A DNA stretch of 64,000 nt from assembly GCA_000002435.2 (NCBI GenBank), contig CM018790.1; one strand, 5' to 3'. Position numbers and translations under genes: made by a program. Under the pieces are notes generated by a model. That model saw only the letters and a program-made list of their open reading frames with translations. It searched no databases and was not told where the DNA came from. Positions 3,001 through 59,591 of the stretch are shown here, one piece after another. Source of the DNA: Giardia intestinalis. Its lineage: Eukaryota. The first letter of the stretch is position 1, and each line of letters begins with the position of its first letter.

Positions 3001-5645
3001 AGGTCGCAGACCATTTGCGCAAGATCCTGACTGAAGCGACAGCGCTCCCCGATCATCAAGGACATAGACCCCGAAAGAAGTACGGTAAGGGGCGACGGTT
3101 GATCTTCAGAAAGATCGATCTGCAGGAGATCTTGGAAGCGTCTAGTCAAGATGCCAAGATGGCAATTATCAAACCGCCTATAGAGCTTCCGCTGAGCGAT
3201 AAGGTCTGCCCTCAATATGCTGAGGTCGACGTAACCGTCAGTGGTCGCCATATCCTTCGGTATCCACTTTCCATCATTGAGGCTATAGAGACTTAGAGGT
3301 CCAAAAGTGCAGTTGTAAAGAAGCGCCATGTTACTGAAGCACGTGTAGAGATATAGGCCGATGACGCCCAGCCGTTCTGCAACCTCATCCGCATCCTTTC
3401 CCGCATCAAGGCACACCTTCTCGGTATAAGTAATAATCCTCTCCACTTGCCCCCGAATGCTCGAAATGGAAGGCAGCAGACGACGAACAGCGGAGAAGAG
3501 GGCCTGGTCCGGCCGGTGAAGCATGCATCTCTTTATCACAGCCGTATACGTCTCTAGAATTAATCCAAGGGAGAGAAACTGCATTGCTAGAGGTGAGTCG
3601 CATAACCCGTGGAACAACAAATCGAAGGAACTAGGAAAGTATTTTATCAGAAGCTTGGGGACATGCTCCCCTGGCACCGAAAGGCTTATGTACTTGCCAA
3701 AAGAATCATACTTGGTGCGTTCAGAGCCAGCAGAGAGAATCTTTTTGATCTTATCGAGTCCCTGGAGCATAAACGTGTAAAACCCGTCCGCAGCTGAATA
3801 CATCCGTGTTGGCCGCGTGGCAAAGAAGGTATACGAGAAGCTGAAGAAGCCACCACCCGTGCTAACGGCCAGGATGTGCTCTGGATAACGGTCGCTAGGA
3901 GACTGAAGCAATATCCGGTCGTTATCTGGCCGTAGAACAGCGGGGACAAGGACTTGAAGATCTTCAGAGAGCTTCCTCTGATACTCTGCTACCTCCTGCA
4001 TCTGCATCTGCGACGTGTTCAAGATATCCACTTCCTTGTGAACATTCGAGTTGTTGTCTATTCGTGCGTGTCTGAGGCAAAGGGAAAGATCAAACTTAGA
4101 ATTCTGTGGGAAGAAGTGGTTGCTGTGGACGCCACCGCCCGATAAGTCAAGCGTATTGCTAACTGAGTTGGAGTCTAAAGGGTCCCTTAGCGACGCTATA
4201 AGTATACGCAGAAGTTGAAGGTACGTACTAATCGTGGTGAAATCTTCAGAGCCAACAATGTCTCTGCTATTTTTAGCAAAGAATGGCAGCTTTGCGACAT
4301 GCTTGATGGAACTGGGATTGGTTTGTGAAATGAATTGAAATAGTTTGACGAGATGAGTCGCCTTAGCAAAATCGGTTGATGAGAAAATAGAGTTCAGTAT
4401 AGAGCACAGCATTTCGAGTATCTTAATCGCAGAAGATCGCGAGGTCCGATGAATCCAAGAGGAGAGCTCCACAGACGGACCCTCCGAGCTATATGTGCCT
4501 GAGCCGTCATCAAATGAGTATCCATTAACGACCAGCGCATCATACATAGTGGCTTTCCGAGGCTCTAAAATGAACTGCTCATTGGTGCCGCCACGAGTTT
4601 CGATTTGCAACTGTCGCTCTGTAGGTGACGCGTTAGCGATTATTGGTCGAACAAAATCAAAATACGTTTGGATGGCTCTGGCCATTAGAGGTGATTTGCA
4701 ATAAAACGAGTCAGTTCCCAACTTGAGTACCGATACGAGCTGTTGAACTGGAAGAGGCCCCAACTCCAGAACAACTCCCTTGTCCGCATTAGCTCCCTGA
4801 AGCATACTGTAGTAATCTAACACACTGATGAGCTTGACGCGCTTCATAATGGCCAGAAGCGCGTAGGCGAGTTCATTTTGCGCTTCAGTTGGCATGCAGT
4901 GGAGGGATTTCTGAACGAGCAAGACAACCGTTTTCAAGTTGTATACAGATATGACGCGTTGGATGAAGAGAGGATTACAATAGGAGAAGAGATTGCCAAT
5001 GAACGAAATCACTCTAAACTTGGGGCCCTTAAATATATCGTCCCTGGAATAAACGCGGACAACGTCATCCTTATGTCCTCTCAGGACCACGTGATCGGCA
5101 CTCTTGAACTGATTTAAGTTCCCAATGGAGACGCGGGTATACACAGGAGACGGACAGTCGGCCAGGCGTGGGAGAAGCATGCTGCCCGGTGGAACCAAGG
5201 ACACAAGCGCGTGAATACTCATGGACGGATATAGCTTGAACAGCTTGGTAATCATCTGAACAACAAGAGTGATGGGAGGAAAAATAACCTTGTAAGCCTC
5301 CATCTCTTTTTCTATTGGCTTCCAAAGAGGCCCTACCCACTGCATCTTTTCAATTTTGGCGATTATCAGCTTTGTCTGTGCAAAGTGCCTAATAGAGTCC
5401 AAAACCGCGTTACATAGTTCTAGCTGAGCAATCAGATGGGTGTAATCATCCAGCTCGAGCGTTTCGGGGAATGCGTAATCCAGCGCATCAGAGTTTCCCA
5501 ATAGAGCATCAACAAGAGACCAATCACTGGGGGGAGCCTTTTGCTCCTGTAAAAGCGCATCTCTGAACGCGTGCAGAGCTGAGATACGCCCGTGTGTTCC
5601 TGCAGACCACGTCGCGTGCTCTGAGAAGAACGCGACGCTTTGCAT
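36..5645 (-). CDS. Large hypothetical protein (1869 aa); no domain recognisable by eye
   Basis: Uninterrupted 5.6-kb ORF with an ATG start (rc of 5643-5645 = ATG). It is divergent from the LRR gene with only a 42-bp AT-rich spacer. Confidence 0.7.
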   Translation of the reverse strand: MQSVAFFSEHATWSAGTHGRISALHAFRDALLQEQKAPPSDWSLVDALLGNSDALDYAFPETLELDDYTHLIAQLELCNAVLDSIRHFAQTKLIIAKIEKMQWVGPLWKPIEKEMEAYKVIFPPITLVVQMITKLFKLYPSMSIHALVSLVPPGSMLLPRLADCPSPVYTRVSIGNLNQFKSADHVVLRGHKDDVVRVYSRDDIFKGPKFRVISFIGNLFSYCNPLFIQRVISVYNLKTVVLLVQKSLHCMPTEAQNELAYALLAIMKRVKLISVLDYYSMLQGANADKGVVLELGPLPVQQLVSVLKLGTDSFYCKSPLMARAIQTYFDFVRPIIANASPTERQLQIETRGGTNEQFILEPRKATMYDALVVNGYSFDDGSGTYSSEGPSVELSSWIHRTSRSSAIKILEMLCSILNSIFSSTDFAKATHLVKLFQFISQTNPSSIKHVAKLPFFAKNSRDIVGSEDFTTISTYLQLLRILIASLRDPLDSNSVSNTLDLSGGGVHSNHFFPQNSKFDLSLCLRHARIDNNSNVHKEVDILNTSQMQMQEVAEYQRKLSEDLQVLVPAVLRPDNDRILLQSPSDRYPEHILAVSTGGGFFSFSYTFFATRPTRMYSAADGFYTFMLQGLDKIKKILSAGSERTKYDSFGKYISLSVPGEHVPKLLIKYFPSSFDLLFHGLCDSPLAMQFLSLGLILETYTAVIKRCMLHRPDQALFSAVRRLLPSISSIRGQVERIITYTEKVCLDAGKDADEVAERLGVIGLYLYTCFSNMALLYNCTFGPLSLYSLNDGKWIPKDMATTDGYVDLSILRADLIAQRKLYRRFDNCHLGILTRRFQDLLQIDLSEDQPSPLTVLLSGSMSLMIGERCRFSQDLAQMVCDLLAESSVLLHPSMHKFSQQKLEELAAQLDTRALCEDAAKVLLASEYVSFSGEKERLCDALHQSLKSLVDALGGCSILFALVLLALQRQIAVDSIHAATSFLHLLMLPTQPGEFSISSIVVAFPMDNFINNSPGSGPSIATSNAIAIDGQLITRRTHIKKDSPIHKRLSNFFITIRNMLYWEDALLTEVLLFCINFLTANLPDNAPALADDSKASVIEDLVSVLLSFILLNTYGLAAANNTDSTVKNCIFLGKYQVCQSKLLNRCIDLMRTMDLSSSQLLSSKVSTDTVQRMIPSQNMDRIGASIPLQLEYINTYLGRVMSRSPVSVRPLLLFTGELNAHIHSLYSWKDISIPSEDSISTVRSINLSEYQCFVETVLNLVPHPLVQHTRNFLSTALTLVTNITAQTLSNGSAPLQDVINVAGYPILINSSALLGSEGSLDHLIFIPYIHVLLFLHNGTMDSHQNVYTILLFSYLCRAGFSLSDIYGYSPSSLFSGGHISSAIATQLQTLEPAADNPDILCLISSIYPFLHAALDKAVSDPILFCTLNSIDCAKVSTKILAKVGTSETKKEAMDYIGDVTDAINRYAIDKAEICPVLFGDIFLELLLEPCATYEAVIFKGHEAELHSFAPSKSDANVSFAELTMFNFEEPERLVRPEKVDYKPNTNFEKEYNDLQYQTANLSKKLPNRLYGYIQRTVVPAPYRNLTYLALRMAPGSLHLAPERAIVTVKQLVEAGVTPQSITDATLPLLPLLLLRVTGADAARPSGPISHLFSERYTPGIQLFSLLFIMHGYERFFGISKDILSTLLTFLDEHRMEKHADTRIVPLGFVPSKIQAFRYKFIDYCRYFQRAVEHIREVDVELTFAERLRALRYMGFLSSTFLAYVFVAMPEEKFDRILANEIYGGNPLRLLRKMANREFRLAYETNQDELLLRIMHRNHSILVKYCYLDIDGLRALSICLDYHVAFTECSRVRGNLWKLNDLVEQEHEIII

Positions 5646-5687
5646 TTATTAGTAGATTAAACGAAAAAAGGAAGAGACCAGCCAGAA

Positions 5688-7415
5688 ATGGCTCAAAGGT
5701 ACATCGAGGCATGCGAAAAGCTCGGGATACGCCCGCGAGAGTTAATCGTAAGCTTCCTGAAAAACTCCTCTACCCGATTGAATCTCTATGGGGCTCAGAA
5801 AGAACTTTATATGAATAGGCTTGTAGACAAAGATGTAGAGGCGTTGCAGCTAGGACTCGCGGATGCGCGTCTGTCAGAATTCGTTATAGATCTCAGCTGC
5901 AATGATTTGACAGATATTTCTCTTGTGTATTTGGGCTCCATTGTTTCCACCTGTCCTCTGATAGGCTTGTCCATCAGAGGAAACAAGTTCACGAGAAAAG
6001 GTGCCATTGAGCAACTAGCCTCTGAATCATTCCTGATGGCTACCACGTGTCAATTGCAGTATCTAGATTTGTCTGAAAACAGTTTCGAAAGCAGTGGAAC
6101 AGCCGCCATCATGCGAGCCATCCTCAATTCAGAGCCTCTGCATTACGGGGTGTACACCGAAACACCCTATATGGCTCCCAAAATCACACGTGTTCGTGCC
6201 TACGGGTATCTGCAGTATTTGGACTTATCTAGCACTGGATTTGGAGAGCAGGCAAATCTCTATCTTTGCGATTATATGCGTTCACGATTTTGTGGCTTAC
6301 GAGAACTGAAGCTGTCTGCCTGTCAATACTCTGCTGTAGCTAACTATAGCACCGACACAGATGAAGACTATAGTGGCTTCTTCAGGTTCGCTGATGCACT
6401 CAAAAGAAATACAAGCCTTGAGGCGCTGAGTCTACGCTCTAACAAGTGCCTCGACAATGAAGCAGCTGTGCGCATCATCCGGGCATTGGTGGCAGAAGTC
6501 CCGGAGCTGGATAAAAAGCAGGATAATGTTGACAACCCAGGATGCTTGCGCCGCATAGAAGAGTACAGGCATTTCTATAGACTAGGAACAGGACTAACGG
6601 AGCAGAACCTGGTTGCAGGTCCTAGAAATACGGAGTCGTGCTTGCCGGCAGCTCTTCCATCGAAGGCAGAGTATGACAAGCGAATATCAGAACTGGAAGC
6701 TCGAGCGAATGGAGGCAATGTAGCACAGGTGAAATTAGCAGATATGTCCATATATTGTCAGGAAGATAAAACGAGTCCAGTTAAGGTTGCGGTGACTCCT
6801 CTTCGCTATATAGATTTATCATGCAACAATCTGTGCTTTGATGTAGCAAATGCTATTGCAGACCATTTGCGTAGTCCAGATTCAGTCCTGTCTGTCCTGG
6901 TTCTAGATGGGGTTTCTCTAAGAAACAGGGGGATCAATGCCCTTGCCAAAGCACTGATTGCATACGCTCCTAGCGCGATTATTCTTGACGAGCTAGCTCA
7001 TAAGCATGTTGATGAGCAAGGCATTCCTGTCTTCAATTCCGAGATAGAATTCTTCGGTTGTCTTGGAAAGACCTCTGCCGGAATCTGTCTGAGCCTACGC
7101 AGATCTTCAATAAGGGGACAGGGACTGGCAACCCTTGCCCTCCTGTGCCGCCACAACCAACTGATCGACTACGTTGCTATTGAGGGGTGTACCCTGGCAC
7201 CAGAGGAGGGAGAAGCTGGCACGGTTAATGAGGGTAAGCGGTGGGCTCCAGACATCGAGTGGGAGGCGACGTTCATAGCACGCAACGAAGCCATGAGGCC
7301 CATACGGTGTGACTTTGGATTAAGGCGTAACAGTGATGGGGTTCTTCAGTTTTATAAGGAGGATGCATTGATTCTGTGCGGAATTTATGCTTTCCAGCCT
7401 AGGTACTTGTCCTGA
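5688..7415 (+). CDS. Leucine-rich repeat protein, ribonuclease-inhibitor (RNI)-like LRR type
   Basis: ATG at 5688. Repeated LxxLxLSxNxL/LDLSxN units (LSCNDLTDISL, LDLSENSFESSG, LDLSSTGF, LSLRSNKCLDNEAAVRII, IDLSCNNLCFDVANAIADHL). A GTGAAC poly(A)-like motif follows the stop. Confidence 0.75.
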   Translation: MAQRYIEACEKLGIRPRELIVSFLKNSSTRLNLYGAQKELYMNRLVDKDVEALQLGLADARLSEFVIDLSCNDLTDISLVYLGSIVSTCPLIGLSIRGNKFTRKGAIEQLASESFLMATTCQLQYLDLSENSFESSGTAAIMRAILNSEPLHYGVYTETPYMAPKITRVRAYGYLQYLDLSSTGFGEQANLYLCDYMRSRFCGLRELKLSACQYSAVANYSTDTDEDYSGFFRFADALKRNTSLEALSLRSNKCLDNEAAVRIIRALVAEVPELDKKQDNVDNPGCLRRIEEYRHFYRLGTGLTEQNLVAGPRNTESCLPAALPSKAEYDKRISELEARANGGNVAQVKLADMSIYCQEDKTSPVKVAVTPLRYIDLSCNNLCFDVANAIADHLRSPDSVLSVLVLDGVSLRNRGINALAKALIAYAPSAIILDELAHKHVDEQGIPVFNSEIEFFGCLGKTSAGICLSLRRSSIRGQGLATLALLCRHNQLIDYVAIEGCTLAPEEGEAGTVNEGKRWAPDIEWEATFIARNEAMRPIRCDFGLRRNSDGVLQFYKEDALILCGIYAFQPRYLS

Positions 7416-7688
7416 TTCGCTAGCTGAATGATGGTGAACATTTGCGTGTGCCACATCACTGACCACCAGCTGTCACCGATAATTTGATATAAGTCTTATG
7501 TCTATGAAAGAAGTGAATGTCGATTGAGTTTTGATTTCAAGGGACACCTTTGCGAAAATTCTACTCTCCAGAGAGTATGTCTTCCACAACAAAAGGGATA
7601 AATAGTAAAGTAAAGCTATGTTATCCACGCACATCAGATTGCAATTAATCTCAAAGTTCAAAAACTTCGGACGATCCGTTTTGGATCC

Positions 7689-8654
7689 ATGGGAGAAGAC
7701 GACGGCACCCCCTCGTGTAGCATTTTTCAGCTAATTGTTACTACTGGAGTGAACGGCTGCATGCTTCTCAGCTCCATTGTACTTCTGGGAATATTTCTTC
7801 GGTCTTGTAGGCACTACGATCACAAAGAGGGTAAGCGGTACATTCTTGCCCATACAGTTCTTGTCTTTCTCTATCTGATTCGCATTGTGTGGGCGATAAT
7901 AGGGCTAACTCTTGTAGCCTATCCATCTAGTGATGCATTGAAAGGGGTATCTAAGTTTTTGAATCGCGTTGCATGTCTCCTTTTTTACCTATCCCTCAGC
8001 TACTATGCCAGAAACTGGCTTTATGTGCTGCTTTACTTGAAGTGGCGACGGGCAGCAAGTTTATGCAGAATAGCGTTCATACTGATTGACTCTTTCTTGA
8101 GCTTGTTTGTGCTCATTGCAGCCATAATAAAGCTACTTCCCGTTGAGAAGGACTCATACCCCAACCTCTTAGCGTATAGCACCCAGATTATTGGGTATTC
8201 GTCGCTGGCCATTGTTTTGTTCTACACAATCATTGGCACCATCGTACTGTGTCTCTGGCGCGAACATATTGTTGGAAGAACAGTCGTTAAGCAGTTCTAT
8301 ATTGTAGCTATCATATTTATCCTAAGCTCTGTTTTGCGTATGGTGCTTTTCAATTGGCACCAATGGTTTGATGCTTATGTTCCTTGTGACGTTTTCAATA
8401 TCGCTTGCATCGCACTACCTGACTGCTGTGTTGGAGGATGCCTCATGAAAGTGTACTATGTCTCACTATGCACTAACCTTGATCCAATGACCAGCGAGTC
8501 ATCACAAACCAGGTCTTCTGCACTGAGATTTAAGAAGGTTTATTCTGCCAACTCTATTGAGCCTATTCAGCGTTTAGATTCTTCCACACCGAGAGACACT
8601 ACTCACAATCAGTTCAGTGAAGACTATTATTCTTATCATTCCCTGCTTAACTGA
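7689..8654 (+). CDS. Polytopic membrane protein (about 7 predicted TM helices), hypothetical
   Basis: ATG at 7689. Alternating long hydrophobic stretches (LLSSIVLLGIFL, VLVFLYLIRIVWAIIGLTLVAY, FILIDSFLSLFVLIAAIIKLL, IVLFYTIIGTIVLCLW, FYIVAIIFILSSVLRMVLF). Confidence 0.6.
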   Translation: MGEDDGTPSCSIFQLIVTTGVNGCMLLSSIVLLGIFLRSCRHYDHKEGKRYILAHTVLVFLYLIRIVWAIIGLTLVAYPSSDALKGVSKFLNRVACLLFYLSLSYYARNWLYVLLYLKWRRAASLCRIAFILIDSFLSLFVLIAAIIKLLPVEKDSYPNLLAYSTQIIGYSSLAIVLFYTIIGTIVLCLWREHIVGRTVVKQFYIVAIIFILSSVLRMVLFNWHQWFDAYVPCDVFNIACIALPDCCVGGCLMKVYYVSLCTNLDPMTSESSQTRSSALRFKKVYSANSIEPIQRLDSSTPRDTTHNQFSEDYYSYHSLLN

Positions 8655-8685
8655 TTCCCTGCGCGGTTGCGGATTTTAGAAAATT

Positions 8686-9477
8686 ATGATTAAGCGTGAC
8701 TCTGTTTCTAGACTGCTCTATATCTGTAATCTATCCTTCAGTTGTTGTCTCTTGGTAGTAGTTTGTGCTCTCTACGTTATGGAGTACTTTACTGGTAGGG
8801 AATCATCCACCTTTACTCTGTCTTATTATGCGCTATTTTTAATATTAGCTTTCATCGTTGGCGGAACGCTCTTCATGGGAATAATCCAACTAAGAAAAAC
8901 AGTATTGAACTGGTTTGTTTGCAGATATATATCATGTGGCCTTAACATATATGGGCTACTTGTGCATGCCATCTATCTAATCTTTGTAATTTGGTTCGTT
9001 CCTTTGGCTAGATTATTAGCAAGCGGGCTCTGCGTCTTTATAGAAACGTTACACACCATTCTGCTATTTAACTATGCTAGCAGCATACACTATACTGCAG
9101 CTTATGCTACACGACTTGCTCTTGTGGGTTGCCTGTTCATTGACCAGATGGTCCAGTTCATTGAGCTGTCAACTAACATATCTGGAAACGAAACCAATCA
9201 TAAATATATGCTTATAGAGGCATCTATCTTATATACCGTGATCGTTATAGGCTCATCTGCTGCCTTAAGGTCTCTTTCTATGTCATTTGTTAGCTCCATA
9301 GTGCTGCTCTCTTGGACACTTTCTTCATCAGTCGAAGGGACTCTTCACTTGGTCTTGATAATTGAGTCTATTATCTCTATAATATCGCTAGGAGCTATTA
9401 GCGCATATCATGGTCTCCAGTTTCGGAGACGAAAAAGAGCTATTCATTTAGAAGAGCCCAGCTATGCTACAGATTAG
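8686..9477 (+). CDS. Polytopic membrane protein (about 6-7 TM helices), hypothetical; second member of a tandem pair
   Basis: ATG at 8686. It lies 31 bp downstream of the previous membrane-protein gene. Hydrophobic helices include CCLLVVVCALYVM, YALFLILAFIVGGTLFMGII and YLIFVIWFVPLARLLASGLCVFI. Confidence 0.6.
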   Translation: MIKRDSVSRLLYICNLSFSCCLLVVVCALYVMEYFTGRESSTFTLSYYALFLILAFIVGGTLFMGIIQLRKTVLNWFVCRYISCGLNIYGLLVHAIYLIFVIWFVPLARLLASGLCVFIETLHTILLFNYASSIHYTAAYATRLALVGCLFIDQMVQFIELSTNISGNETNHKYMLIEASILYTVIVIGSSAALRSLSMSFVSSIVLLSWTLSSSVEGTLHLVLIIESIISIISLGAISAYHGLQFRRRKRAIHLEEPSYATD

Positions 9478-18554: not shown

Positions 18555-19814
18555 CTATGCCTTTCCGCGGCAGAGGAACCACCAGCAGAGGAAGCCGACA
18601 AGCCCTCCGACGACAACGATCACGGCGACGGAGATACCCGCGATGGCGCCAGTGGAGAGCCCGCTCCTGTTCGTGCTTCCGCCGGTACTGTCACCGTTCT
18701 TGAGGTAGCAGAGGACGGAGCCTTGATTATTAGATGGAGGAGCGCAGCTCATGCAGCCAGCAACTCCCTTGACACTTCCACTGTCACTTTCACATGATGT
18801 GCATGTCCCAGGATCTAATCCAACCATGTAGTACCCAGTTGCACACGTTGTACAAGCATTTGCAGAATTAGCATCACGACATGTCTTGCAGGTCGAATGA
18901 CACGAGGGGCATGCTCCATTATTAGGCTGAAGACTATTGGCGCACGTCTGACATCCACCATTGCTATCAGCTAGTGTGCATATCTGCTCACCGGGCTGTC
19001 TGCCGAGTTTATAGCAGCCTCCATCTTGAAGGAAATGATCTGCAGCACACTGAGTGCATACGCCACCTGCTGCGTTCGTGCAGAATGAATTCCTTGTTAC
19101 TGAATTAGCGCACACGCCATTCTGAGGTGCCCACTTATCTTCCTTGCATTTTGAACAGTACTTCGTACCGCCGATTACCGCTCCACACTCTGCACACCCG
19201 TCCACCTCTGCTTTGCACTCATCTACACAAGATCCACCTTGATTAGGATCATCATTGGTGTATTTTAGCATTTTCCCGGGAGGACAAGCTGTGCACTTCG
19301 CTGGTCCCTTTGTGGTGCACCCAGCACAGCTAGGATCACAAGGCTCGCACTCTTTGTCTCCGTTGTAGTAGCTTCCTATTGCTCCGCAGCTCTGCGTGCA
19401 CTGCTTTGTCGGGGTGAGGTAGTTGCCATCATTACATTCGGTGCAGATTTCGTTGTCTGTTTTGGGGTTGTCACATGCCTTGCAGTTGGGAGTATTGCAC
19501 TGCGTGTTAGAGGCCTTCTCGCACGCGGTCTTCCCATTGTTCAGGCTGAATCCCGGGTTGCACACGCAGACGTTCTGGTCGTTGGCTGCAGAGTTCTGGG
19601 GGCAAGTGGCGTCGCAGCTTACTCCATTGAGCTGCACCTTCTTTCCGCCGCCGCAGGTGAGGCACGTCTGGTCCTGGCCCACACCAGTGCAGGTCTCGCA
19701 GCCCGCCTGGGTCAGTCTTTCTTCGCATGCCGTGTTAGAGGCCTTCTCGCAGCCGTTCTTTCCGTTGTGCTTTGCCAGCACGGTTGCACAAACTAGGAGA
19801 AATCCTACCAACAT
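18555..19814 (-). CDS. Variant-specific surface protein (VSP), 419 aa
   Basis: ATG start. N-terminal signal MLVGFLLVCATVLA. Many CXXC motifs. GGCY motif (FLQDGGCYKLG). C-terminal TM GAIAGISVAVIVVVGGLVGFLCWWFL followed by the invariant CRGKA* tail. Confidence 0.92.
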   Translation of the reverse strand: MLVGFLLVCATVLAKHNGKNGCEKASNTACEERLTQAGCETCTGVGQDQTCLTCGGGKKVQLNGVSCDATCPQNSAANDQNVCVCNPGFSLNNGKTACEKASNTQCNTPNCKACDNPKTDNEICTECNDGNYLTPTKQCTQSCGAIGSYYNGDKECEPCDPSCAGCTTKGPAKCTACPPGKMLKYTNDDPNQGGSCVDECKAEVDGCAECGAVIGGTKYCSKCKEDKWAPQNGVCANSVTRNSFCTNAAGGVCTQCAADHFLQDGGCYKLGRQPGEQICTLADSNGGCQTCANSLQPNNGACPSCHSTCKTCRDANSANACTTCATGYYMVGLDPGTCTSCESDSGSVKGVAGCMSCAPPSNNQGSVLCYLKNGDSTGGSTNRSGLSTGAIAGISVAVIVVVGGLVGFLCWWFLCRGKA

Positions 19815-20484
19815 TAGCCGGGTTCGTGTGCCACTGCTCTTCCATCAGGCTGGTGTGTTGCCGCGAGCAGTGAGAGACAGCCGCTCTTGCTCTCTTGATC
19901 AGTTGGACCGGAGAAGGACGAGATAGGAGCACACCAACCAGAGGCCAGCTGATAGTGTAGTTCTCTCTGACTTCCATAGGAACAGGACCAGTGAGGGCCA
20001 GACTCAGACCGCACCTCTCTTGTGGAGTGATTGCTCGGGGCGCACTCCTGTACATTGCTGTCACTGTATCACTGACCCCGCCTGCAGGTGCGCTCAGAGG
20101 TCTCATGGGTAAGCTGCGCCCACTTCTCGACCGTCCGGAGACGATGGCTGGTTGTGGATAACATGACGAGAGTTCTCCCTAGTGATGCATCCAGAGCTCA
20201 GTGTGGTCCCTGATCGGCATACTCTGTCTGGGGCACTCCGCGTCGGCCTCCAGGATCCGGCCTGCTTAAGGCCATACAAGCCGTTAGTATGCCTCTCCTT
20301 GGCCTGCCATCGACAGCTCACACTGGGCGCCTTGCTCGGGTAGTAGCCAAGGCCACTCCAAAGGATGGCTCCGGATTGCAGTTAAAATCAGCTGCGGCTG
20401 TTGACTCCACTCCCTGTCCCAGCCACCGCAGAGGGCGCCCTAGGAGTTGCTAGTAACAGTGCAGTTAGCGGCTTTGCAGAGCCG

Positions 20485-22567
20485 ATGGGCGCTGGTGGCA
20501 TCCCCGTGCTCAGCGGGGGCCTTCAGTGTTATCTACTCTCCCAAGGGATGCCCCCACCTCACTGTGAAGGAGATCCGGCTCGACGGTCTGGATCAGCACG
20601 GTGTGGATGCTATTAAGCGTAGGCTGGCCGCCCTTCTTAACATCTTTCACCCGGGTCCTCAAGTATCATCAAGTAGTCGAGGACGAGGGCCTCATCTACG
20701 TCGTCACGGACCGGCACGACAAGACCCTCGAGCACCTCCTCGCCGAGCACAAACGAAGGAAGACCCCCGTCCCCATTACTATGATCCTCTCCGTCATGAA
20801 GCAGGTCGCCGCCGCCCTCGCCTACCTCCACGGCCTCAGCGAGGTAAGTGCTAACAGGCTTGTCCACCGCGACCTCAGGCCTACCAATATCCTCATCAGC
20901 GCAGATGGTGAACACTTCGTCATCGCCGACTTCGGCCTCTGCAAGGACGCCCTGTGGAGTGGGAGTACTCTCATGGGAGTGGCGTACATGGCCCCCGAGA
21001 TTCTCCTCCGTAATGAGACCAGCCATGCTTCCGACATGTGGAGCCTCGGGGCCATCATTTATGAATTAGTAACTCTGAGGAGACCGGACTTCTTGGGGGG
21101 CAAGGAGCCGGCAGAGGTCTTCGTCGATGGGTGGAGACCAGACCTGAGCGGTCTCACTGATGGCTTCATGCAGAATGTTCTGGAGGGGATATTCGTATTG
21201 GAGCCAGAGAGGAGGCCGACGGCCAGGGAGCTGCACGAGACGCTCGCTACATTCGACATCCCAGTTGGTGAGTTGGGAGGTCAGTGCGTGATGCTGAAGT
21301 ATAAGTGCGGATCCTTGGAGGCTGCGCTGAATGGCGCTAACGCCAGGATCGCGTTGCTGGAAGAGGATGTTAAGATTAAATCTACTAAGATCGACGCACT
21401 TGAAGACCAAAGTAAGGAACATCTAGCTATGATTAAGGCACTGGAGAATAAGCTTGCACAGTTCGATGACAGGATGAACACGACTGACCCTCAGTCCAGC
21501 CTCTTTTTGTTGCCCGGGCTGATGCGTGCCGCGCATACGAATAGCACGGAGACCGTCTGGATGCTGCTTGAAGAAAGACTCGGTGTTGGTCAGCGCGACG
21601 AGCAGGGGCGCATCAGTCCCGTCGAGTTGCTTGTTGGGGAGGAGAACGGTCTCCAGGACAAGAATGGCTGGACTACCTGATGATCGCCACAGAGGAGGAC
21701 TATGCAAGAGCTGCCTCCCTTCTGGTCCCATATGAGAAGGACCGGATCGGCAGCGAAGGCAAGACGGCCTTGGTGATGCGGCAGAGGCAGGACATGGAAC
21801 CGTGGTGGAGGCCATCGACCCAACCGATGAGAATGGCATCACAGCACTCATGCGAGCTGTTAATAGAAACGACGCGGGGGCTGTGAAGGCAGTCATACTT
21901 AGCCAGAGAAGGAGGAAAACATACAAAGAGGTCACAAGAAGCGGATGGTACATGCGCAAAGGAACAGCTCTGATGATGGCTGCGGCAATGGATACGCAGA
22001 AATAGTAGAACTGCTAGCAGAGCACGAAAAGGGAGAGAAAGTAGGCGGTTGGGCCGCTCTCGTATTCGCGGCACTGTGCAATCGTTCCAATGACCCCCTG
22101 GTGGACTATATTGGGCACGTTGAGCTTTTGATGGAGTATGAGAGCAGTATCTCAGGGTGGACGGAGCTCATGTATGCAGCAGCACGAGGGCACGAAGGAA
22201 TCGTAGAGCTACTCGAGCAGGAGACTGGCATAAGGAACAACGAGCATCAGACTGTCCTCACATGGACGGTGTGCAATGGCCATCCAGAGTGTGTCAGACC
22301 CCTGCTGAAGGACGAAGGCGGCATGCAAACGACCAAGGGGGGATCGCCCTTATGAACGCAGCATATAGCAACGCCGTGGAGTGTGTAAGGCTTCCTAAAG
22401 AAAACGAGAAGGATCTGAAGACAACCTGCAGTTGCTATGATCACTCGCCCGGTACCACTGCTTTCGACATCGCTAAGAAGAAGGATCACAAAGAGATGGT
22501 AGGCATCCTCTCAAACGAGATCTACTCTGTTTCAACAATGTCGGCTTGCCAGCTCCTGTCCGAGTAA
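20485..22567 (+). pseudogene. NEK-type kinase + ankyrin-repeat gene disrupted by at least five frameshifts (pseudogene)
   Basis: The ATG at 20485 is immediately out of frame with the N-lobe (GAFSVIYSPKG...VKEIRLD). The kinase core (HRDLRPTNIL, DFGLCK, YMAPE) continues in another frame (track ORF 20601..21680, GTG-initiated). A coiled-coil follows. Ankyrin repeats (GKTALVMR, GITALMRAVNRNDAGAVKAV, GWAALVFAALCN, GWTELMYAAARGHEGIVELL, GGIALMNAAYSNAVECV) are then spread over frames 2, 1, 0 and 2 between 21680 and 22567. Other long ORFs in the window are intact, so sequencing error is an unlikely cause. Confidence 0.7.
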
Positions 22568-22569
22568 AC

Positions 22570-23597
22570 CCGTCCAGAGTCCGAAGCTCGGATGCCGTCC
22601 ACTCTGGAGAAGAGCCTTGTGCATCCCGCCTGGGAGCCGTTGGGTGCCCCACTATGCGCTTCGGGGCGTCCCTTCTCTCTGGTCCGTCGGGGTCAGCCAT
22701 CGTCTGACATCTATTGAGCTCCTGCTGTCCCGGGCCTGCCGTCGGTCACAGCAGCCTGGCCTCCACGTGGCCCTGGTGCTCTACGACGAGGATCGCACGC
22801 CACGACCTCGGGTGTCTACCCCGTTCCTCGGGTGCCTCTTTGTCTCCCCATGACGTGGATCATCGACCCTATTGTCGGAGGTGCGCTCCCCATACGCCTC
22901 CATCTTGGAGTCATAGTACGCGTTCGTGGATGCCGATGGAGTACTCCCATGCGTTGTGTCGGGGAGAGGTCCGGCCCTCTGCTCACGGATCGCAGGGCGC
23001 TTTTGCAGGTGGTCCGTCACCCAGCACGAGATCATGTCAGCGCTCACCCTGTGCAGTGCGTCTGGCTCAGTGACGTGTGGGCTGGTCCATCTGCACCGCA
23101 CAGCACGCTTGGGGGAATGATTCGGTCTGTCGAGGCGTCATCCGAGGCATCAGAAGCGATCAGGACCGGTTCGCCGCTTGGTTGTCCCGCTCGGCAGCCG
23201 GCACCCGTCTACTCGAGGGTGTCAGGCACTGCCAGCTGCTGCGGCAGACGCCTGGCGGGTGGCCCAGGTCACCGCTCTCCGGTGTGGGCAGGATCAGTCC
23301 GCCTCTGCCAACCAGACACCCCAGGGGCCCCATCTCTTGTCGAGGGATTCACATGGGTCACGTGTGGGTCCATCCCGGCCAGTGGGCAGTGATTGGTGCC
23401 ATCACTGGCTCCAGGCCCTCCGTTGCCTTCTCTATCGCCTCGGGGAAGGAGGCATAAATCTTCCCCGTCAGAAGCAGACGGCATCCGACTTCGGACTTCG
23501 GATTCTGGGTCTCGGCTGGTGAACAAACGAGAGACTGCCAGCCTAGTGCGGCGGTGGCTCGCACGAGGGGGTTTATCCGGGTAGCAGTCGGCAAACC
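22570..23597. mobile_element. Short (~1 kb) copy of a GC-rich non-coding repeat with inverted terminal segments (copy 1)
   Basis: About 99% identical to 53700-54450 over roughly 750 bp, as shown by near-identical spurious ORFs in all frames. The right ~130 bp (23465-23597, ...GCGGCGGTGGCTCGCACGAGGGGGTTTATCCGGGTAGCAGTCGGCAAAC) recurs at 36850-36981 and, reverse-complemented, at 35936-36060 and 53487-53620. The left end keeps a ~30-bp rc remnant (TCCGAAGCTCGGATGCC). Confidence 0.7.
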
Positions 23598-23655
23598 GAC
23601 CTTTTTGAACAGAGTAAATGGGAGACAAGTCTCAAAAAAGCAAATTGCCAAGGTC

Positions 23656-35515: not shown

Positions 35516-35935
35516 GCACACAAACTTGCACCATTGAATTTCTTTAACCACTGATGGAGTAAACTGACTTTGGTAAACCAACTGTGCAGGCACAGACTAG
35601 GATTTGCCAGGCTGCAGATGTACACTGTATCCATTAACAGTGTGGGCGCGTATTTGGTCAGGCTTTAGGTCCTTACTAATAGATGATTTTGCACATTTCC
35701 TAAGGGATATCCATGCAAGGATCAATCAATTAAACTTTGGACAGCCTTCGATACTTTTGTAGTTATAAGATGAGATCGGTATCTGCCAGGAACACCGTAT
35801 ATCACAAATTAACCTCATGAAATAAAAGGCAGATGAAACCATATTGCCATGCAAGAAAGCATATCTTCTAATTTTGATAGACTGCAGAGTATAGTGCAAG
35901 TCATAAAGTGGTTAGCATAGGTTTACTCTATCCAC

Positions 35936-36981
35936 CGGGATCGGTTTGCTAGCCGCGACCCGAGCCAGTCCCGCGGAAGAAGAGCTTTGTGCTTCCTCCG
36001 AGGCAATAGCGGATGCACCGGAGACCCTGAGGCTGGCAGTGGATGCGCCAGTCACTCACCACCCGAGCCGAGCTGGTCTGGACAGACTCACCACGCGACC
36101 CCTACGGATCCCTCGGAGGGCAGGCCTGCCCTCTGGACGCCCGGCTCGAACAACAGTGGACCGAGCTCCTGGCTACGCAGGACAGCGGCGGTCGGGAGTC
36201 CACCACAAGCAGCTGCGCGGTGCCTGACACCTCGACGTGAGACGTGGCATCACAGCAGGCTGCCGAGCGGGACAACCAAGCGGCGAACCGGTCCTGATCG
36301 CTTCTGATGCTTTGGACGATGCCTCGACAGACCGAATCATTCCCCCAAGCGTGCTGTGCGGTGCAGATGGACCAGCCCACACGTCACTGAGCCAGACGCA
36401 CTGCACAGGGTGAGCGCTGACATGATCTCGTGCTGGGTGACGGACCACCTGCAAAAGCGCCCTGCGATCCGTGAGCAGAGGGCCGGACCTCTCCCCGACA
36501 CAACGCATGGGAGTACTCCATCGGCATCCACGAACGCGTACTATGACTCCAAGATGGAGGCGTATGGGGAGCGCACCTCCGACAATAGGGTCGATGATCC
36601 ACGTCATGGGGAGACAAAGAGGCACCCGAGGAACGGGGTAGACACCCGAGGTCGTGGCGTGCGATCCTCGTCGTAGAGCACCAGGGCCACGTGGAGGCCA
36701 GGCTGCTGTGACCGACGGCAGGCCCGGGACAGCAGGTGCTCAATAGCTATCAGGCGATGGTTGACCCCGACGAGCCAGAGGAAGGGGGAACCCTGGAGGC
36801 ACCGCGAGGAGCGGCAGCTTCCAGGGGAGGGGGGCATAGAAGTTCTTCCGCCGGGATCCGAGGACATCCGACTCCCGAACTCTGGATTTGGATTCCAGCC
36901 GATGCAAGGGCGAGAGAGACCCGCTTGCCCAGAGCGGCGGTGGCTCGCACGAGGGGGTTTACTCGGGTAGCAGCCGGCAAA
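35936..36981. mobile_element. Short (~1 kb) inverted copy of the same repeat, with both terminal inverted segments (copy 2)
   Basis: The body is the reverse complement of copy 1 and copy 3. Mirror-image ORFs (MPLCLPMTWIIDPIVGG..., MSTCCPGPAVGH..., MRCRWTSPHV...) are identical in sequence. The left end is rc of the terminal segment (GGCTCG...GCTAGCAAACCGATCC) and the right end is the direct terminal segment (GCGGCGGTGGCTCGCACGAGGGGGTTTACTCGGGTAGCAGCCGGCAAAC). Confidence 0.7.
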
Positions 36982-37047
36982 CAAATTTCGGTAGTGCCTT
37001 CTTACATGTGAATTTACAGTTACTGTAGAGTATAGCCTCTAAGAAAA

Positions 37048-38415
37048 ATGAGCCAAAGAGGGCGAGCTAAGCTCAACCAATACAGTAAAGGAGTCTCTCA
37101 CTCCTCAAGGCTAAGTAGGACGGTTAACGACTTCTCCCAAGCTAGTACCCTCAACGATACTCTTCACATTCAGCAAACTCACTCAATGGATAATTACATG
37201 TACCCAAAGAAACCACCAGAGGTCTCACAATATATCGCAGAGCGCTATGGAATGTCGTGGGCTGACAGCGAAGGCAAGATGCGTAGATCGCTGACTACAC
37301 TAATAGCACGCTCTCAATCATCTCATGAGGGACTTCTGGAACTTGACGCCGAACTGAAGACGCTTGCTAATAAGGTGAATAGCTACGCTTCATCTTCCTT
37401 AGATCAGCCCGATACCAGCAAACGAGCATGCCTTCTATTAGAACAGGTTATAGAAATGAAAGCAGAGTTCTATGAAAGACTTGACAGCGCGCTCAATCAA
37501 CTTAGCAAGTTATCTACTGCTCATAGCAACACCCTTCAAGTGCTAGACGCAGAAAAACAACGCGTAGAAGCTCTCACTAAAGAGGTGGACCAGCTTCGTG
37601 TAGACTACAGTATGTGCAGAGATGCCAATGCAGCTCAAGCAGCAAGTCTCACTGATACTCAAATGAAATTGCTCGAGACGTCCTCATTTCTGGAAACCGC
37701 GAAGAAGAATATCACAGTCCTTAATGATGAGAATTCCCAGCTCAGAGACTCCCTTCAATTCACAAATCATGAACTGGCAGACATCAAAACTGTACACCGT
37801 AGCCAAACTGAATCCTTCGAAGCGCTTCTTGAGCGATCCTCTGCCCGCGAGCAAACCCTTCTAAAAGAACTAGATGAACTTCAACGTGCCTACACAGAAG
37901 AAAAGGATCTATATGCAACGAGAGTTGAGCGTATACATTACTTGTCTTCTGAGATAAGTTCTCTTCAGAAACAAGTTTCTAAGCAACGGGGACATGCTAA
38001 AATATACAAAATCAAGACAGGACAGCTCCGCAGAATAGCAAGGGAATTAAAGGTAATGATACGGAACAACACAGCTATGAGTGCACAGGATACTGATCTT
38101 CTAACACAAAAGGATGCACAAATAGCAGCAATGATGAAAAAGCTAGAAGAGTATAGAGCACGAGCCAAAAGAGCTTCCAGCCATGAGTGTAAGCTCGCTA
38201 GTCAAAGAAGTGAAATAGAGAGATTATCTACGTATGTGGCTACCTTAGAACAGGATTTAGATCGCTATAAAGCCAGAAGACTCAAGTTTAGTGCACCCAC
38301 AAAGGTTATGACAGCATCGAAAGATGGGAAATCAATGCATTTGAGCATATCAGATGATGGGCCTCGGTCTGAGGGGTTCTTTGCCAGTACACGAAGCTAC
38401 TGTGCGGTACTTTAG
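37048..38415 (+). CDS. Coiled-coil protein (455 aa), hypothetical
   Basis: ATG at 37048, which is 67 bp after the repeat terminus. Heptad-rich sequence runs throughout (LQVLDAEKQRVEALTKEVDQLRVDY, LEEYRARAKRAS...). AGTAAAC lies 26 nt after the stop. Confidence 0.65.
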   Translation: MSQRGRAKLNQYSKGVSHSSRLSRTVNDFSQASTLNDTLHIQQTHSMDNYMYPKKPPEVSQYIAERYGMSWADSEGKMRRSLTTLIARSQSSHEGLLELDAELKTLANKVNSYASSSLDQPDTSKRACLLLEQVIEMKAEFYERLDSALNQLSKLSTAHSNTLQVLDAEKQRVEALTKEVDQLRVDYSMCRDANAAQAASLTDTQMKLLETSSFLETAKKNITVLNDENSQLRDSLQFTNHELADIKTVHRSQTESFEALLERSSAREQTLLKELDELQRAYTEEKDLYATRVERIHYLSSEISSLQKQVSKQRGHAKIYKIKTGQLRRIARELKVMIRNNTAMSAQDTDLLTQKDAQIAAMMKKLEEYRARAKRASSHECKLASQRSEIERLSTYVATLEQDLDRYKARRLKFSAPTKVMTASKDGKSMHLSISDDGPRSEGFFASTRSYCAVL

Positions 38416-52420: not shown

Positions 52421-52970
52421 TCAGGAATGGACACACGAACAACTCGTTCTATTAGAGGTTTATTATATTGGTTCTTCCACTACATGTGGTTGTTTCAAGC
52501 TGTGTGATATACTCCGTACAATGGCTACCCGTCGTGTTACCTGTGTATTGCAAATAGGTTGTATAAAAATTCTGCGCTTGCACATAATGCATAAACCATG
52601 TTAGTAGTTGTTTCCTTGCTTCACAATGACACTATCGGAAATCGTCTATCTATCCTTAGCCCCAGTACATGGTCTAACTTGCTTCTCTGTATCTTGTTTA
52701 GTAATACCAAGAGCTTCTACGATGATTGGTAGCGTGAGTCCTTATGTCGATATAAGTATATATGCTTGAGAAACCGTCATCAGCTCACCAAGAGGCTAGG
52801 AAAGCTCCAGCGCTTCAACCTAAGCGGTCATCGCCTAATGGAGCCGTCCTACCTGCAAGATAAGGGTTGGAGCAGACGTTACAAATTATGTATAGCGGAA
52901 AACAAGAGCTGTGACCTACTGCTCCTTATGACTAATATTTAATATGATTTTCATATGTCTGCACCGCCGT

Positions 52971-53042
52971 GCGGTCATAGTACAGTGGCTAGTATGCGTG
53001 ACTGTCACTCACGTGACCCGGGTTCGATTCCCGGTGACCGCG
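52971..53042 (+). tRNA. tRNA-Asp: tRNA-Asp (anticodon GTC)
   Basis: Hand-folded cloverleaf. Acceptor GCGGTCA/TGACCGC. D-arm GTAC-AGTGGCTA-GTAT. Anticodon stem CGTGA/TCACG with loop CTGTCAC (U33, A37). Variable loop TGAC. T-arm CCGGG-TTCGATT-CCCGG. Discriminator G. CCA is not encoded. Confidence 0.85.
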
Positions 53043-53486
53043 GCTTTGCTTGGTGCCGGCGCAGACGTCTTCACCGGGTCTTTGGGACCGAGGCTGGTTG
53101 CTCCAGGCTGACGCGGAGCCGTCACTTCTTCCTGGTGTACAAGCGTGTCAATCGATGATTATCCTCTCGCTTGAGCACCCATTTGTCATTCTGGTTTGCC
53201 ATCCAGCACTTGAAGTGATGGGTTAATGAGTTTTCAAACAACATACTTCATTGATCATTGCTAAGAATAGCATATCTTTTTGTATGAAGATAACCGTTCC
53301 TCTGTAGATCTTCAATCTAACAGTTAAAGATGTACTATAAAGACGAGCCTACAAGGTTTCTCATAAGAACATATCTAACAGTCCTTGTTCCTTGCAATAT
53401 GTTGTCTTATGATGTAGTTCACTGATAGTAGATACATTTCACCATCCGATCTTGTCACTTGATAAGTTTAGTACGAATGATTCCCC

Positions 53487-56400
53487 CTATTTACTCTCCA
53501 CTTCACCGGGGTAGGGCTGTCGCCTACTACCTGAGTGATCTCCCATGCGAGCCGCCATCCTGGGCAAGCTTCTCACCCATGCATTAGCTGAGATCCGGAA
53601 TCCGAGAGTCGGATGTCCTCGGATCCCGGCGGAAGAACTTCTATGCCCCCCTCCCCTGGAAGCTGCCGCTCCTCGCGGTGCCTCCAGGGTTCCCCCTTCC
53701 TCTGGCTCGTCGGGGTCAACCATCGCCTGATAGCTATTGAGCACCTGCTGTCCCGGGCCTGCCGTCGGTCACAGCAGCCTGGCCTCCACGTGGCCCTGGT
53801 GCTCTACGACGAGGATCGCACGCCACGACCTCGGGTGTCTACCCCGTTCCTCGGGTGCCTCTTTGTCTCCCCATGACGTGGATCATCGACCCTATTGTCG
53901 GAGGTGCGCTCCCCATACGCCTCCATCTTGGAGTCATAGTACGCGTTCGTGGATGCCGATGGAGTACTCCCATGCGTTGTGTCGGGGAGAGGTCCGGCCC
54001 TCTGCTCACGGATCGCAGGGCGCTTTTGCAGGTGGTCCGTCACCCAGCACGAGATCATGTCAGCGCTCACCCTGTGCAGTGCGTCTGGCTCAGTGACGTG
54101 TGGGCTGGTCCATCTGCACCGCACAGCACACTTGGGGGAATGATTCGGTCTGTCGAGGCATCGTCCAAAGCATCAGAAGCGATCAGGACCGGTTCGCCGC
54201 TTGGTTGTCCCGCTCGGCAGCCGGCACCCGTCTACTCGAGGGTGTCAGGCACTGCCAGCTGCTGCGGCAGACGCCTGGCGGGTGGCCCAGGTCACCGCTC
54301 TTCGGTGTGGGCAGGATCAGTCTGCCTCTGCCAACCAGACACCCCAGGGGCCCCATCTCTTGTCGAGGGATTCACATGGGTCACGTGTGGGTCCATCCCG
54401 GCCAGTGGGCAGTGATTGGTGCCATCACTAGTTTCGGCCCTCGATTGCCCTGGGAGCTCCTTCGAGACTAGTTAGAAAGGAGGCCTCCTGTCCCTCTGTG
54501 CTCCTATACCCAGTGCTGACCGTCGAGCTATAGCGTTTCGCCAGGCCTGTCGCCTCTGTGACTATCCCCGTCGTGTCACTGTCGTCACTATGGAAGCTGA
54601 GTGTGTCGTCGACATGGGCAGTGAGCGGGGCATCTCCTTCAGCTCCTGGTGAGCAGGTTCTGTCTCCCGCAGCACAGAAGAATGCTCAGGACCCCGAGGG
54701 ACCGAGCCCAGGGGTGCAGCGTGGCGCAGCCGGAGGAAGGCCTCGACGCAGCTCCTCGGGACTACCTTGTGGAGCGAATCATGATCGTCCATTGATTGTG
54801 GTCGCCCTGTCTCATTCTTGAGGAAGGACCAGACGGAACCGTACAGAGCACGCGTCCCATCCTATGGGTCGCGCTGATAATCTCGCTGAAGGCCTGTTTA
54901 GGGGCCCCGGAACGCCTGCACCCGGATGGGGGCTTGCCAGCGCAGGTCCAGGCCAGAGGGCCCGGGGACTTCAAGCCCCGTGGACTAGTCGCCCTGGCCG
55001 TCTCTTCGTCGGTGATCTGGTAGGGCCGTCCGTGCTCTCCGATGGCTGAGAGGGTCCGTATCCCTCAGGAGCCAGGCCGTCCTGATCCGGCCCTCTGGAT
55101 AGCAAGGTGCTGGTCGTCGGTGGCGCTGTCAGGGTGCAGCTCCCCCTCGAGGCGAGGCAGAGGCTGCAGGCCGGGCAGTAGGATGGTGAATGCCGCTCCT
55201 CCGCTTCCCCGCTGTGTGAGCGAGGCACGTCTCCTCGGCTCTCACCTGGGGCTCTGCGGGGTGCTAGGTACCTTCCCGTGAGCACGTTCGCACGATGGGT
55301 GCTGAAGGGGATGTCCTTCTCTATTCCTATTACTCCACTCAGTGGCGCCCTGCATCCGGTGTCTGTGCTGCATACGTCTGGACGGCCTCACCGCGGAGGG
55401 TCTTCGCTCAGGACAGGCATGTGCTCTTCCGCTCCTACTAGTTCAACGTTCGCCTGGTGCCACTCCAGCGTAGGGCGCTCCTCTCCATCAGGTTCCTAAG
55501 GTCCTCGTTCTTGGTGTGATACCTGATCTCTCCCCCGTGAGGGGTAGGGTTCACGGTGCACTGGTGTGTGTTCGGAGCGACGCCTCCCTTTTAGAGTTCT
55601 GCAGGTTACACGACCCTCTGGGGACAACCAGCGACTGGGACCCCTGTTTGAGGCAAGGGCTGACCTGGCTCCACCGGGCTGCGAGCAACTCAAGGGCGCT
55701 CTGGTGTTGCTGGTCTCTCAACCGCACAGACTTGGCCTGTCCTGGCAGATAGTTGGGGTCGTCCCTGAGCGCCTCCGAGGAATCTGGGAAGCGCTCCGGT
55801 CCGATGCTTTCTGTCCAGAGCATCGCGACGGGCAACGGTGAGGGCCCGCGTGGGACACCGCACTTGGGCGACAAGGCTCGGTGTGCGTGTGCTGGCACCG
55901 TCTGTCGGTCGCAAAGCTGCAGAAGGAGCAGCAAGAGGAGCCCAAAGCGGGAGAGGGTTCTCCAGACGTGCTGCTCGAGACCCTTTAGAAGTCGAAAGAG
56001 ACATGGCAGGAGACGCAGAAGTGGTCGAGTGGCTCTTCGTGCTGTGGATCGCGTAGGAGGTCCCCAAGGGTGCAGTCTCTTAGTGAACCCGGCGTTCTTG
56101 AGCCAGTTCATGTAGTCAGCGAGTGACCCCTTCAGGGCTAGGTGGTCTCCTAGAGAAACGGTCATTGAGAGCCCTGCCACCATGCAACCGTTCTCTGGCA
56201 CAGGGATGTTCGTTGGGGGGAGGAGAATGTGAGAGCTTCCCTGCTCTCATCTCCTTGCTCTTTCGTTCATCCTACTGGGCGCTTTCTTGGCGCTTCGCTC
56301 CAGAGTCCTATGGACCTTCCTCGGTGGCACCTTCATGGGAGCAGTCGCGGGTCTGTTATTTGTTAAAGGCTGGACGTCGGGGCTATCGGCTCCTTCGTCT

Positions 56401-56590
56401 GGGCTTCTTCTTCCGCCGGAGCTGGACGGCGCCCGATTCTCGGACTCTGGGTTCAGACATCGAACAGGTAAATGATCGAAGACCCCCCTGGTGTAGAAAC
56501 TCGCATAGAATTTGCTCGGACGGCAGCTAACAAACCAATCTCGGTGGACAGAGGTATGTTCATAGGGCGTTTGCCTTATAGTCATTATCT
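53487..56590. mobile_element. Long (~3.1 kb) GC-rich non-coding copy of the repeat (copy 3); probable full-length form of the element
   Basis: The left end is rc of the terminal segment (53487-53620, homologous to 36850-36981 in reverse). The 53700-54450 interval is ~99% identical to copy 1. About 2 kb of 60-65% GC sequence follows, with ORFs open in all six frames and no credible CDS. Near 56500-56590 (AACAAACCAATCTCGGTGG...) there is a degenerate match to the terminal segment. The right boundary is approximate. Confidence 0.5.
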
Positions 56591-59500: not shown

Positions 59501-59591
59501 TGGGTAGGATGTGGAGGATTCTTTTAGCAGTGCAGATGTCCATAAGAGGTAGCTACAAAGCTGAGGATAAAGCAAGAACCCCAAATAGTAT

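Follow-up and report, generated by a model that had tools for sequence, protein, structure and literature searches.

Organization of the window and its repeat copies

The window, by which we mean the whole 64-kb stretch of Giardia duodenalis WB nuclear DNA analysed here, encodes VSP, NEK-type kinase/ankyrin proteins, a kelch protein and DRC7 as identified with Pfam, and Rfam reports just a tRNA-Asp over its length. Self-comparison of the window shows three copies of a GC-rich repeat, c1, c2 and c3, all of which lie within 31 kb on one chromosome (Table 1). Their GC content is 61-63%, compared with 48% for the window overall. The copies differ in form: c3 is a long version with both inverted termini, and c1 and c2 are short versions of which c2 is inverted relative to the other two.

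Table 1. Positions of the repeat copies, their termini, the shared tracts and the neighbouring features.
Feature	Position	Strand	Description
VSP gene beside c1	18555-19814	-	Pfam
GC-rich frameshifted kinase pseudogene beside c1	20447-21680	+	Pfam
Ankyrin pseudogene beside c1	21945-22567	+	Pfam
Copy c1	22518-23622	+	short form, 1,105 bp, 62.4% GC
c1 left inverted terminus	22518-22640	+	~50-65 bp deletion relative to c3 and c2
c1 right inverted terminus	23442-23622	+	alignment of termini
Copy c2	35919-37017	-	short form, 1,099 bp, 63% GC, inverted relative to c1 and c3
c2 left terminus	36830-37017	-	alignment of termini
GL50803_004245, beside c2	37048-38415		protein exactly that of WB
Copy c3	53483-56575	+	long form, ~3.09 kb, 61.4% GC, both inverted termini
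c3 right inverted terminus	56406-56575	+	aligns with c1 right terminus
VSP C-terminus remnant near c3	59592-59900	-	membrane span, then degenerate tail
Putative c1/c3 conversion tract	c1 22721-23406 = c3 53744-54429	+	686 bp, 7 mismatches, 99.0%
Putative c2/c3 conversion tract	c2 36874-36258 (-) = c3 53606-54222		617 bp, 1 mismatch
Union of both tracts in c3	53606-54429	+	53606-54222 with c2, 53744-54429 with c1
Three-way segment	c1 22721-23106 = c2 36736-36351 = c3 53744-54129		386 bp, 100% identical
DH orthologues	c1 = L006; c2 = L018 8827-9963; c3 = L015		same structural forms

Relative to c3, c1 lacks about 1.9 kb of the interior (c3 ~54485-56405), and c2 lacks a different segment (c3 ~54430-56513). 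The two junctions differ, and the deletions are independent events. Microhomology at the c1 and c2 junctions amounts to at most 'GGC' and is not clean. The 3.1-kb form of c3 is not an accident of one locus: loci L013 and L014 from another Giardia lineage match c3 from ~53800 to 56456 (everything except its left end) and the isolate DH carries an orthologous long form. Over its right third, c2 matches the other copies at only about 50%.

The six termini of the three copies align with each other as imperfect inverted repeats of about 170 bp that begin near 'CCATTTACTCT', although between copies they are only 50-75% alike. Within c1, positions 22520-22571 match 23569-23619 in inverted orientation at 77%; the c1 right terminus matches the c2 left terminus, read on the same strand (36824-36982), at 74% over 160 bp, and the c3 right terminus matches c2 35926-35965 at 80% over 40 bp. 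Copies c1 and c2 abut genes closely. The last 16 codons and the stop codon of the ankyrin pseudogene ORF (22157-22567) are the first 50 bp of the c1 left terminus, the start codon of the kelch gene (23656) lies 34 bp past the end of the c1 right terminus, and the c2 left terminus is 30 bp from the start codon of GL50803_004245 (37048). No direct duplication that might represent a target site is visible in the flanks of c1, c2 or c3; the copies are old, and such duplications could have been lost.

The VSP, kinase and ankyrin sequences beside c1 are in the order of the Giardia 'telomere gene unit' (PMC10999387). This context (18555-22567) differs between WB and DH by 11.5%, as against 1.0% in adjacent genes. 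Near c3, the VSP remnant ends a 3.6-kb stretch (56600-60200) of 41% GC without an ORF of 150 or more amino acids, and DH carries a full VSP at the place of the remnant. VSPs are also found near the related loci L007, L008 and L015. At Giardia telomeres the VSP-kinase-ankyrin unit is followed by rDNA, and a ribosomal RNA origin of the GC-rich repeat was considered for this reason; it was rejected, as no Rfam rRNA match was found at either threshold used.

Extent and edges of the shared tracts

A previous sequence-only reading of this DNA had described three repeat copies with a near-identical interior and diverged flanks. That description holds, but the accompanying numbers required correction by the site-by-site comparison from which the tract limits in Table 1 are taken. 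The identity of ~99% that had been given for 22680-23430 is 97.6% over 743 bp when compared with c3 53708-54449, and the supposed 750-bp core common to all copies resolves into two tracts of 0.6-0.7 kb that are offset from each other, with the c2/c3 tract lying to the left of the c1/c3 tract. The shared part of c2 had been put at ~360 bp; its match to c3 is longer, contains a single mismatch and is in the inverted orientation.

The region common to the two tracts includes the 386-bp segment in which c1, c2 and c3 are identical, and three-way similarity extends to 23199 (22721-23199, 479 bp, with five variable sites). Outside the tracts identity drops to about 50% within a few bases and most of the edges are sharp, the exception being a graded edge at c1 22660-22720. 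Uniform divergence along properly aligned elements, which the earlier reading had named as evidence against a mosaic, is not seen: the tracts are 99-100% identical compared with ~50% outside, and beyond the tracts the WB copies have mutual identities of 25-60%. Four of the seven mismatches in the c1/c3 tract are clustered at 23137-23146, and these four differences, private to c1 among the three copies, match the states of other family members. This patch of c1 looks either unconverted or separately converted. Given that the corresponding DH cores are 71-84% alike, the probability of an identical run of 386 bp arising by chance is less than 1e-29, which excludes a chance origin.

Comparison with orthologous loci in DH

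Orthologous loci for all three copies were taken from isolate DH, which belongs to assemblage A2; WB belongs to assemblage A1. DH is a draft assembly, in which the c2 sequence is corroborated by metagenome contig L019 and the c1 and c3 sequences are those of the draft alone. WB and DH differ by 1.0% in genes and by 2.7% in the non-coding DNA that flanks the copies, and the difference rises to 8.7% for c1 and 10.8% for c3. It varies from patch to patch within both copies, as expected from repeated import of paralogous sequence, and WB-DH identity of c1 is lower inside 22721-23406. Transitions between the WB and DH versions of c3 are symmetric (119 versus 123), and there is thus no signal of GC-biased conversion as a cause of the high GC content.

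The comparison of core and flanking segments that had been proposed earlier was run as identity matrices, in which the segments conflict and the tracts are detected. For the left terminus, orthologues are similar (WBc1-DHc1 92.5%, WBc2-DHc2 96.7%, WBc3-DHc3 99.2%) and paralogues are only 25-50% identical. For the core segment S2, which corresponds to the 386-bp segment, the three WB copies are 100% identical in all pairs, the DH copies match one another at 71-84%, and the WB sequence is 86% identical to DHc1, 82% to DHc2 and 74% to DHc3. In segment S4, WBc1 and WBc3 are 99% identical with DHc1 as the nearest DH copy (92%), and WBc2 is 92% identical to DHc2 and 50% identical to the other copies. 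The termini group by orthology and the core by genome, the latter in WB only. A comparison that included fewer copies had given this result as well.

The c2 locus shows the same relationship along its length. Identity between WB and DH reaches 99-100% for the flanks and the right part of c2 and 95-99% for the left terminus, and is only 70-91% over 36100-36880, the interval that contains the tract; the profile obtained with the independent contig L019 is near-identical to that with DH. Insertions tell a similar story. A 36-nt insert after c3 53785 is present in DHc3 and absent from WBc3, and a similar insert is found at this place in the c3-like copies L009 and L013; DHc2 has a further insert, of 20 nt, within a diverged patch that corresponds to about c3 54160-54176, and WBc2 does not have it. 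WBc3 and WBc2 have lost insertions kept by their DH orthologues.

Probable gene conversion among old copies

The explanation that we strongly favour, with a probability of roughly 0.88, is that non-crossover ectopic gene conversion took place among old, dead copies of the repeat in the WB lineage after the A1/A2 split. Because DH contains orthologues with the same deletions and termini, the copies were already in place and diverged before the split. The homogenisation of the core is specific to the WB lineage, with the direction of conversion judged from this one outgroup isolate. Gene conversion or concerted evolution had been one of two explanations offered initially, and it is strongly supported by the grouping of termini by orthology and of the core by genome, and by the loss of insertions.

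The substrates are old, immobile, non-coding copies of one GC-rich family, one in a 3.1-kb form and two in deleted 1.1-kb forms. Several ectopic (non-allelic) conversion events would have overwritten 0.6-0.7 kb of the interior of each copy with sequence from a paralogue, presumably through homologous-recombination repair of a break in one copy with another copy as template, for which the pattern suggests synthesis-dependent strand annealing as the route. Overlapping but offset tracts of this kind could then produce the 386-bp three-way identity and leave the termini and the remainder diverged. Contig AHGT01000008.1 of DH runs collinear with the window between about 17000 and 48400, a span that takes in c1 and the inverted c2; over the c1-c2 interval covered by this check, collinearity implies a non-crossover outcome with no crossover-driven inversion.

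The donors appear to have differed along the tracts. In the right half (segments S3 and S4) the WB sequence is nearest to DHc1, at 92-97%, which points to the c1 lineage as the donor. In segments S1 and S2 the WB sequence is 14-26% different from every DH orthologue, implying either that at least one donor lay outside the window or that the DH copies have been converted also; for this left half the donor may have been a fourth copy elsewhere in the genome, or there may have been several successive events. No single donor would account for all of the tracts.

Sequence homology is all that ectopic conversion requires; the element need not be active, and the process is an established one among the dispersed repeats of other eukaryotes. 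The sequence-only reading had considered such a mosaic unusual for a presumed dead element; this was overstated, as conversion depends on homology and not on activity.

Alternative explanations for the shared core

The second explanation offered initially was purifying selection on the core as a structured non-coding RNA or a sequence-specific non-coding element. The core is indeed the best-matching part of the three copies, a short stretch at about c1 22895-22950 is well conserved over all of the diverged family members, and the consensus structure computed with RNAalifold pairs 95.7% of cells. We nonetheless consider selection very improbable, since few parts differ more between the isolates than the orthologous cores do: those of DH differ by 14-26% from the WB core and by 16-29% from each other, compared with 1% in neighbouring genes. 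Nor do the structural checks favour an RNA. Shuffled sequences fold about as well as the 386-nt core does on either strand (z = -0.23 and +0.33), the covariation term contributes just -4 of -114 kcal/mol, and double changes occur in 8 of 130 pairs with 5.2 expected, a count that 38 of 500 shuffles also reach. Rfam finds nothing relevant in c3 even at E <= 1, and there are indels of 1, 2, 20 and 36 nt between copies inside the core. A search of JGI metagenome contigs with a conserved 25-mer of the core gave no match.

An artefact of assembly or polishing, in which reads from several copies were merged into a false common core, seems to us equally hard to credit. Repeats are the usual site of such errors and short-read contigs do break at this element. 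However, an independent short-read run produced contig L001, which matches the window at 100% for 11.6 kb; this contig passes from the c2-specific terminus into the shared tract and continues there for 74 bp. Contig L002 ends at 36845, which is 30 nt inside the last c2-specific base (36875), and such an end would be expected where an assembly graph, if it was built on 31-mers, breaks at a true exact repeat. Moreover, copies as far apart as the ancestral ones (16-29%, judged from DH) are too distant for reads to be confused, the limits of the tracts differ from pair to pair, and private differences have been kept.

Recent transposition of one master element to yield three young insertions is more improbable still. 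Although the termini are inverted and the element is present at many loci, all three loci are already filled in DH with the same copy-specific deletions and termini, and assemblage E retains remnants of the element at the c2 locus. The low identity of the WB copies outside the tracts, the absence of a detectable transposase or reverse transcriptase in any frame and the lack of a visible target-site duplication likewise argue against recent movement.

That the core is conserved as a protein is no more credible than recent transposition: ORFs of 106-186 amino acids are open in all three copies, a 106-aa minus-strand ORF is identical in all three, and some are annotated publicly as hypothetical proteins (e.g. 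GL50803_30984 and DHA2_150205), but long open frames, including the 186-aa plus-strand ORF, arise by chance at 62-64% GC, no Pfam domain is found in six frames, substitutions among copies lack codon periodicity, indels between copies shift the frame, and the homologues are the same repeat in Giardia together with unrelated tandem-repeat junk. In particular, a phmmer search with the 106-aa ORF against 1.84 billion proteins recovered only ORFs of the family and unrelated tandem-repeat proteins, and the homologues of a 231-aa minus-strand ORF inside c3 are just three Giardia hypothetical proteins. The 186-codon ORFs of the core had been regarded as spurious from the outset, and we agree.

Implications

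The identical core is in all likelihood a recombination footprint and not a functional RNA or a hidden gene, and gene conversion is a process of a familiar kind, here at work on an element that is itself probably known. The core ORFs annotated in public Giardia proteomes are spurious entries. Recombination in Giardia is a debated subject, and the locus offers a clean and datable example of non-allelic conversion in this organism. Between sub-assemblages, blocks of repeats and pseudogenes in the neighbourhood of VSP genes differ by 9-11% compared with 1% for genes, which matters for genotyping and read mapping, and true exact identity between copies explains why short-read Giardia assemblies break at these repeats.

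Relationship to known elements and recombination systems

With little better than even confidence, we assign the family to the dead non-LTR retrotransposon GilD/Genie 2, a match made to published descriptions. We take GilD and Genie 2 to be one family. Copies of GilD were reportedly found to be exclusively dead by Arkhipova and Morrison in 2001, and Burke et al. in 2002 are said to have described inverted repeats of up to 172 bp in Genie 2; the termini of the present element are inverted repeats of about 170 bp. The part of PMC2861651 that concerns GilD describes it as disrupted by internal deletions and located in gene-poor regions beside VSP genes. Compared with c3, c1 and c2 have each independently lost about 2 kb, and a VSP gene or the remnant of one lies next to c1 and c3, although c2 sits between two ordinary genes.

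The main difference from GilD/Genie 2 is that no reverse-transcriptase or endonuclease remnant was detected in c3, in a five-copy consensus (the ORFs of which were inspected by eye only) or in the related loci. Six frames of c3 gave no Pfam match at E <= 10, hence none to a reverse transcriptase or REL-endonuclease, and Pfam searches of shorter fragments and of a hand-made family consensus of one fragment revealed no reverse-transcriptase remnant. In the majority consensus of long copies, ORFs reach lengths of up to 286 amino acids; these are unremarkable because the GC content exceeds 60% and substitutions show no codon phase. The minus strand of c3 contains a 'PQGSP ... 50 aa ... HVDD' pattern, which was dismissed as chance, as L015, L009, L013 and L007 do not share it.

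It is rather unlikely, though less so than any of the alternatives for the core considered above, that this is an undescribed GC-rich, non-coding element, bounded by inverted repeats and tied to VSP/kinase/ankyrin blocks, that marks a hot spot of ectopic recombination. The copies and the adjoining pseudogene blocks diverge 3-4 times faster between sub-assemblages than neighbouring non-coding DNA. On this reading the reason could be that VSP-associated regions are hot spots of ectopic recombination, a process that would also reshuffle the surface-antigen repertoire, and the homogenised core would be a by-product marking the hot spot.

The element resembles MITEs and other TIR transposons in its inverted termini, its non-coding nature, its short internally deleted forms and the position of its ends near gene starts. 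It differs in its long termini (~170 bp), which match at only 50-75%, and in the lack of a visible target-site duplication. A partner carrying a transposase was not found either: there is no transposase domain in c3 and none in the gene lists of L006-L016, L018 and L019. Arkhipova and Morrison are likewise said to have reported in 2001 that the Giardia genome has no transposase-related sequence. Girep RNAs are also non-coding Giardia repeats in VSP-rich surroundings. Gireps, however, are transcribed head-to-tail tandem arrays of 222-228-nt units homologous to VSP coding repeats, whereas the copies described here are scattered, measure 1.1-3.1 kb, end in inverted repeats and have no relationship to VSP sequence. 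We therefore reject an identity with Girep RNA, which is a different kind of repeat.

Ectopic conversion and concerted evolution have been described for yeast Ty elements, human Alu and L1 sequences and multigene families. Giardia has two tetraploid-equivalent nuclei and no observed meiosis. The case described here differs from those systems in that its substrates are dead non-coding Giardia copies and at least one donor apparently lies outside the three copies. It resembles them in its sharp-edged tracts of near-identity, a few hundred bp long, inside otherwise diverged paralogues, in the grouping by genome inside the tract, in the lack of accompanying rearrangement and in the closeness of the copies on one chromosome.

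Element ends at gene starts and assembly breaks

The short copies c1 and c2 of the GC-rich element end very close to the genes beside them (see table). Promoters in Giardia are very short and these termini lie only 30-34 bp from start codons, so that for both genes, kelch and GL50803_004245, the putative promoter must be located at or inside the element end. Contigs end 47-247 bp upstream of GL50803_004245 in all five of the independent Logan short-read assemblies of WB-like isolates (L001-L005), which makes the c1/c2/c3 repeat family a place where Giardia assemblies systematically break.

Features adjoining the element copies
Feature	Window coordinates	Strand	Relationship
c1 right end to kelch gene start codon	23622-23656		gap of 34 bp
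c2 left terminus to GL50803_004245 start codon	37017-37048		gap of 30 bp
tRNA-Asp (GTC) gene	52970-53044		~440 bp upstream of c3 left end
VSP C-terminal remnant, degenerate tail	59592-59900	minus	closes the 3.6 kb stretch in WB

The long copy c3 and its surroundings

The DH contig with the c3 orthologue starts between the position of the tRNA-Asp gene and the c3 left end. A 3.6 kb stretch at 56600-60200 is AT-richer (41% GC) and contains no ORF of 150 aa or longer, and DH is ~97% identical to it (the DH c3 locus is L015, region 3200-8976). In DH this position holds a VSP gene exceeding 1,165 aa, whereas WB has just the C-terminal remnant; the VSP at this locus is a surface-antigen gene presence/absence difference between the WB and DH sub-assemblages.

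A duplication of ~21 nt at 54590-54620 (minus-strand reading 'HVDDTLSFHSDDSD') is private to c3. It is missing from the other long copies, and the reverse-transcriptase 'xxDD' motif within it is a chance imitation. One further long form, near-complete, is present at 5312-8268 of L013 (1-9360; ENA ERZ19219916 NODE_2996), a 9.4 kb Giardia contig of metagenome origin in which none of the called genes exceeds 197 aa and Pfam gives no match.

The gene block beside c1

The left inverted terminus of c1 contributes, at 22518-22567, the final 16 codons and the stop of the ankyrin ORF at 22157-22567. At loci L010-L012 the same ankyrin end and short element adjoin a different gene, encoding a 2057-aa CPSF_A-like protein, so the two have been duplicated or relocated as a single unit.

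A frameshifted kinase and ankyrin pseudogene of 56% GC follows the VSP gene (window 19900-22567; 3000-5670 in L006, the DH c1 locus). WB and DH differ by 11.5% in this block but by 1.0% in the adjoining genes. The VSP-kinase-ankyrin order is common to the Giardia 'telomere gene unit' (PMC10999387), although the block in the window occupies a chromosome-internal site.
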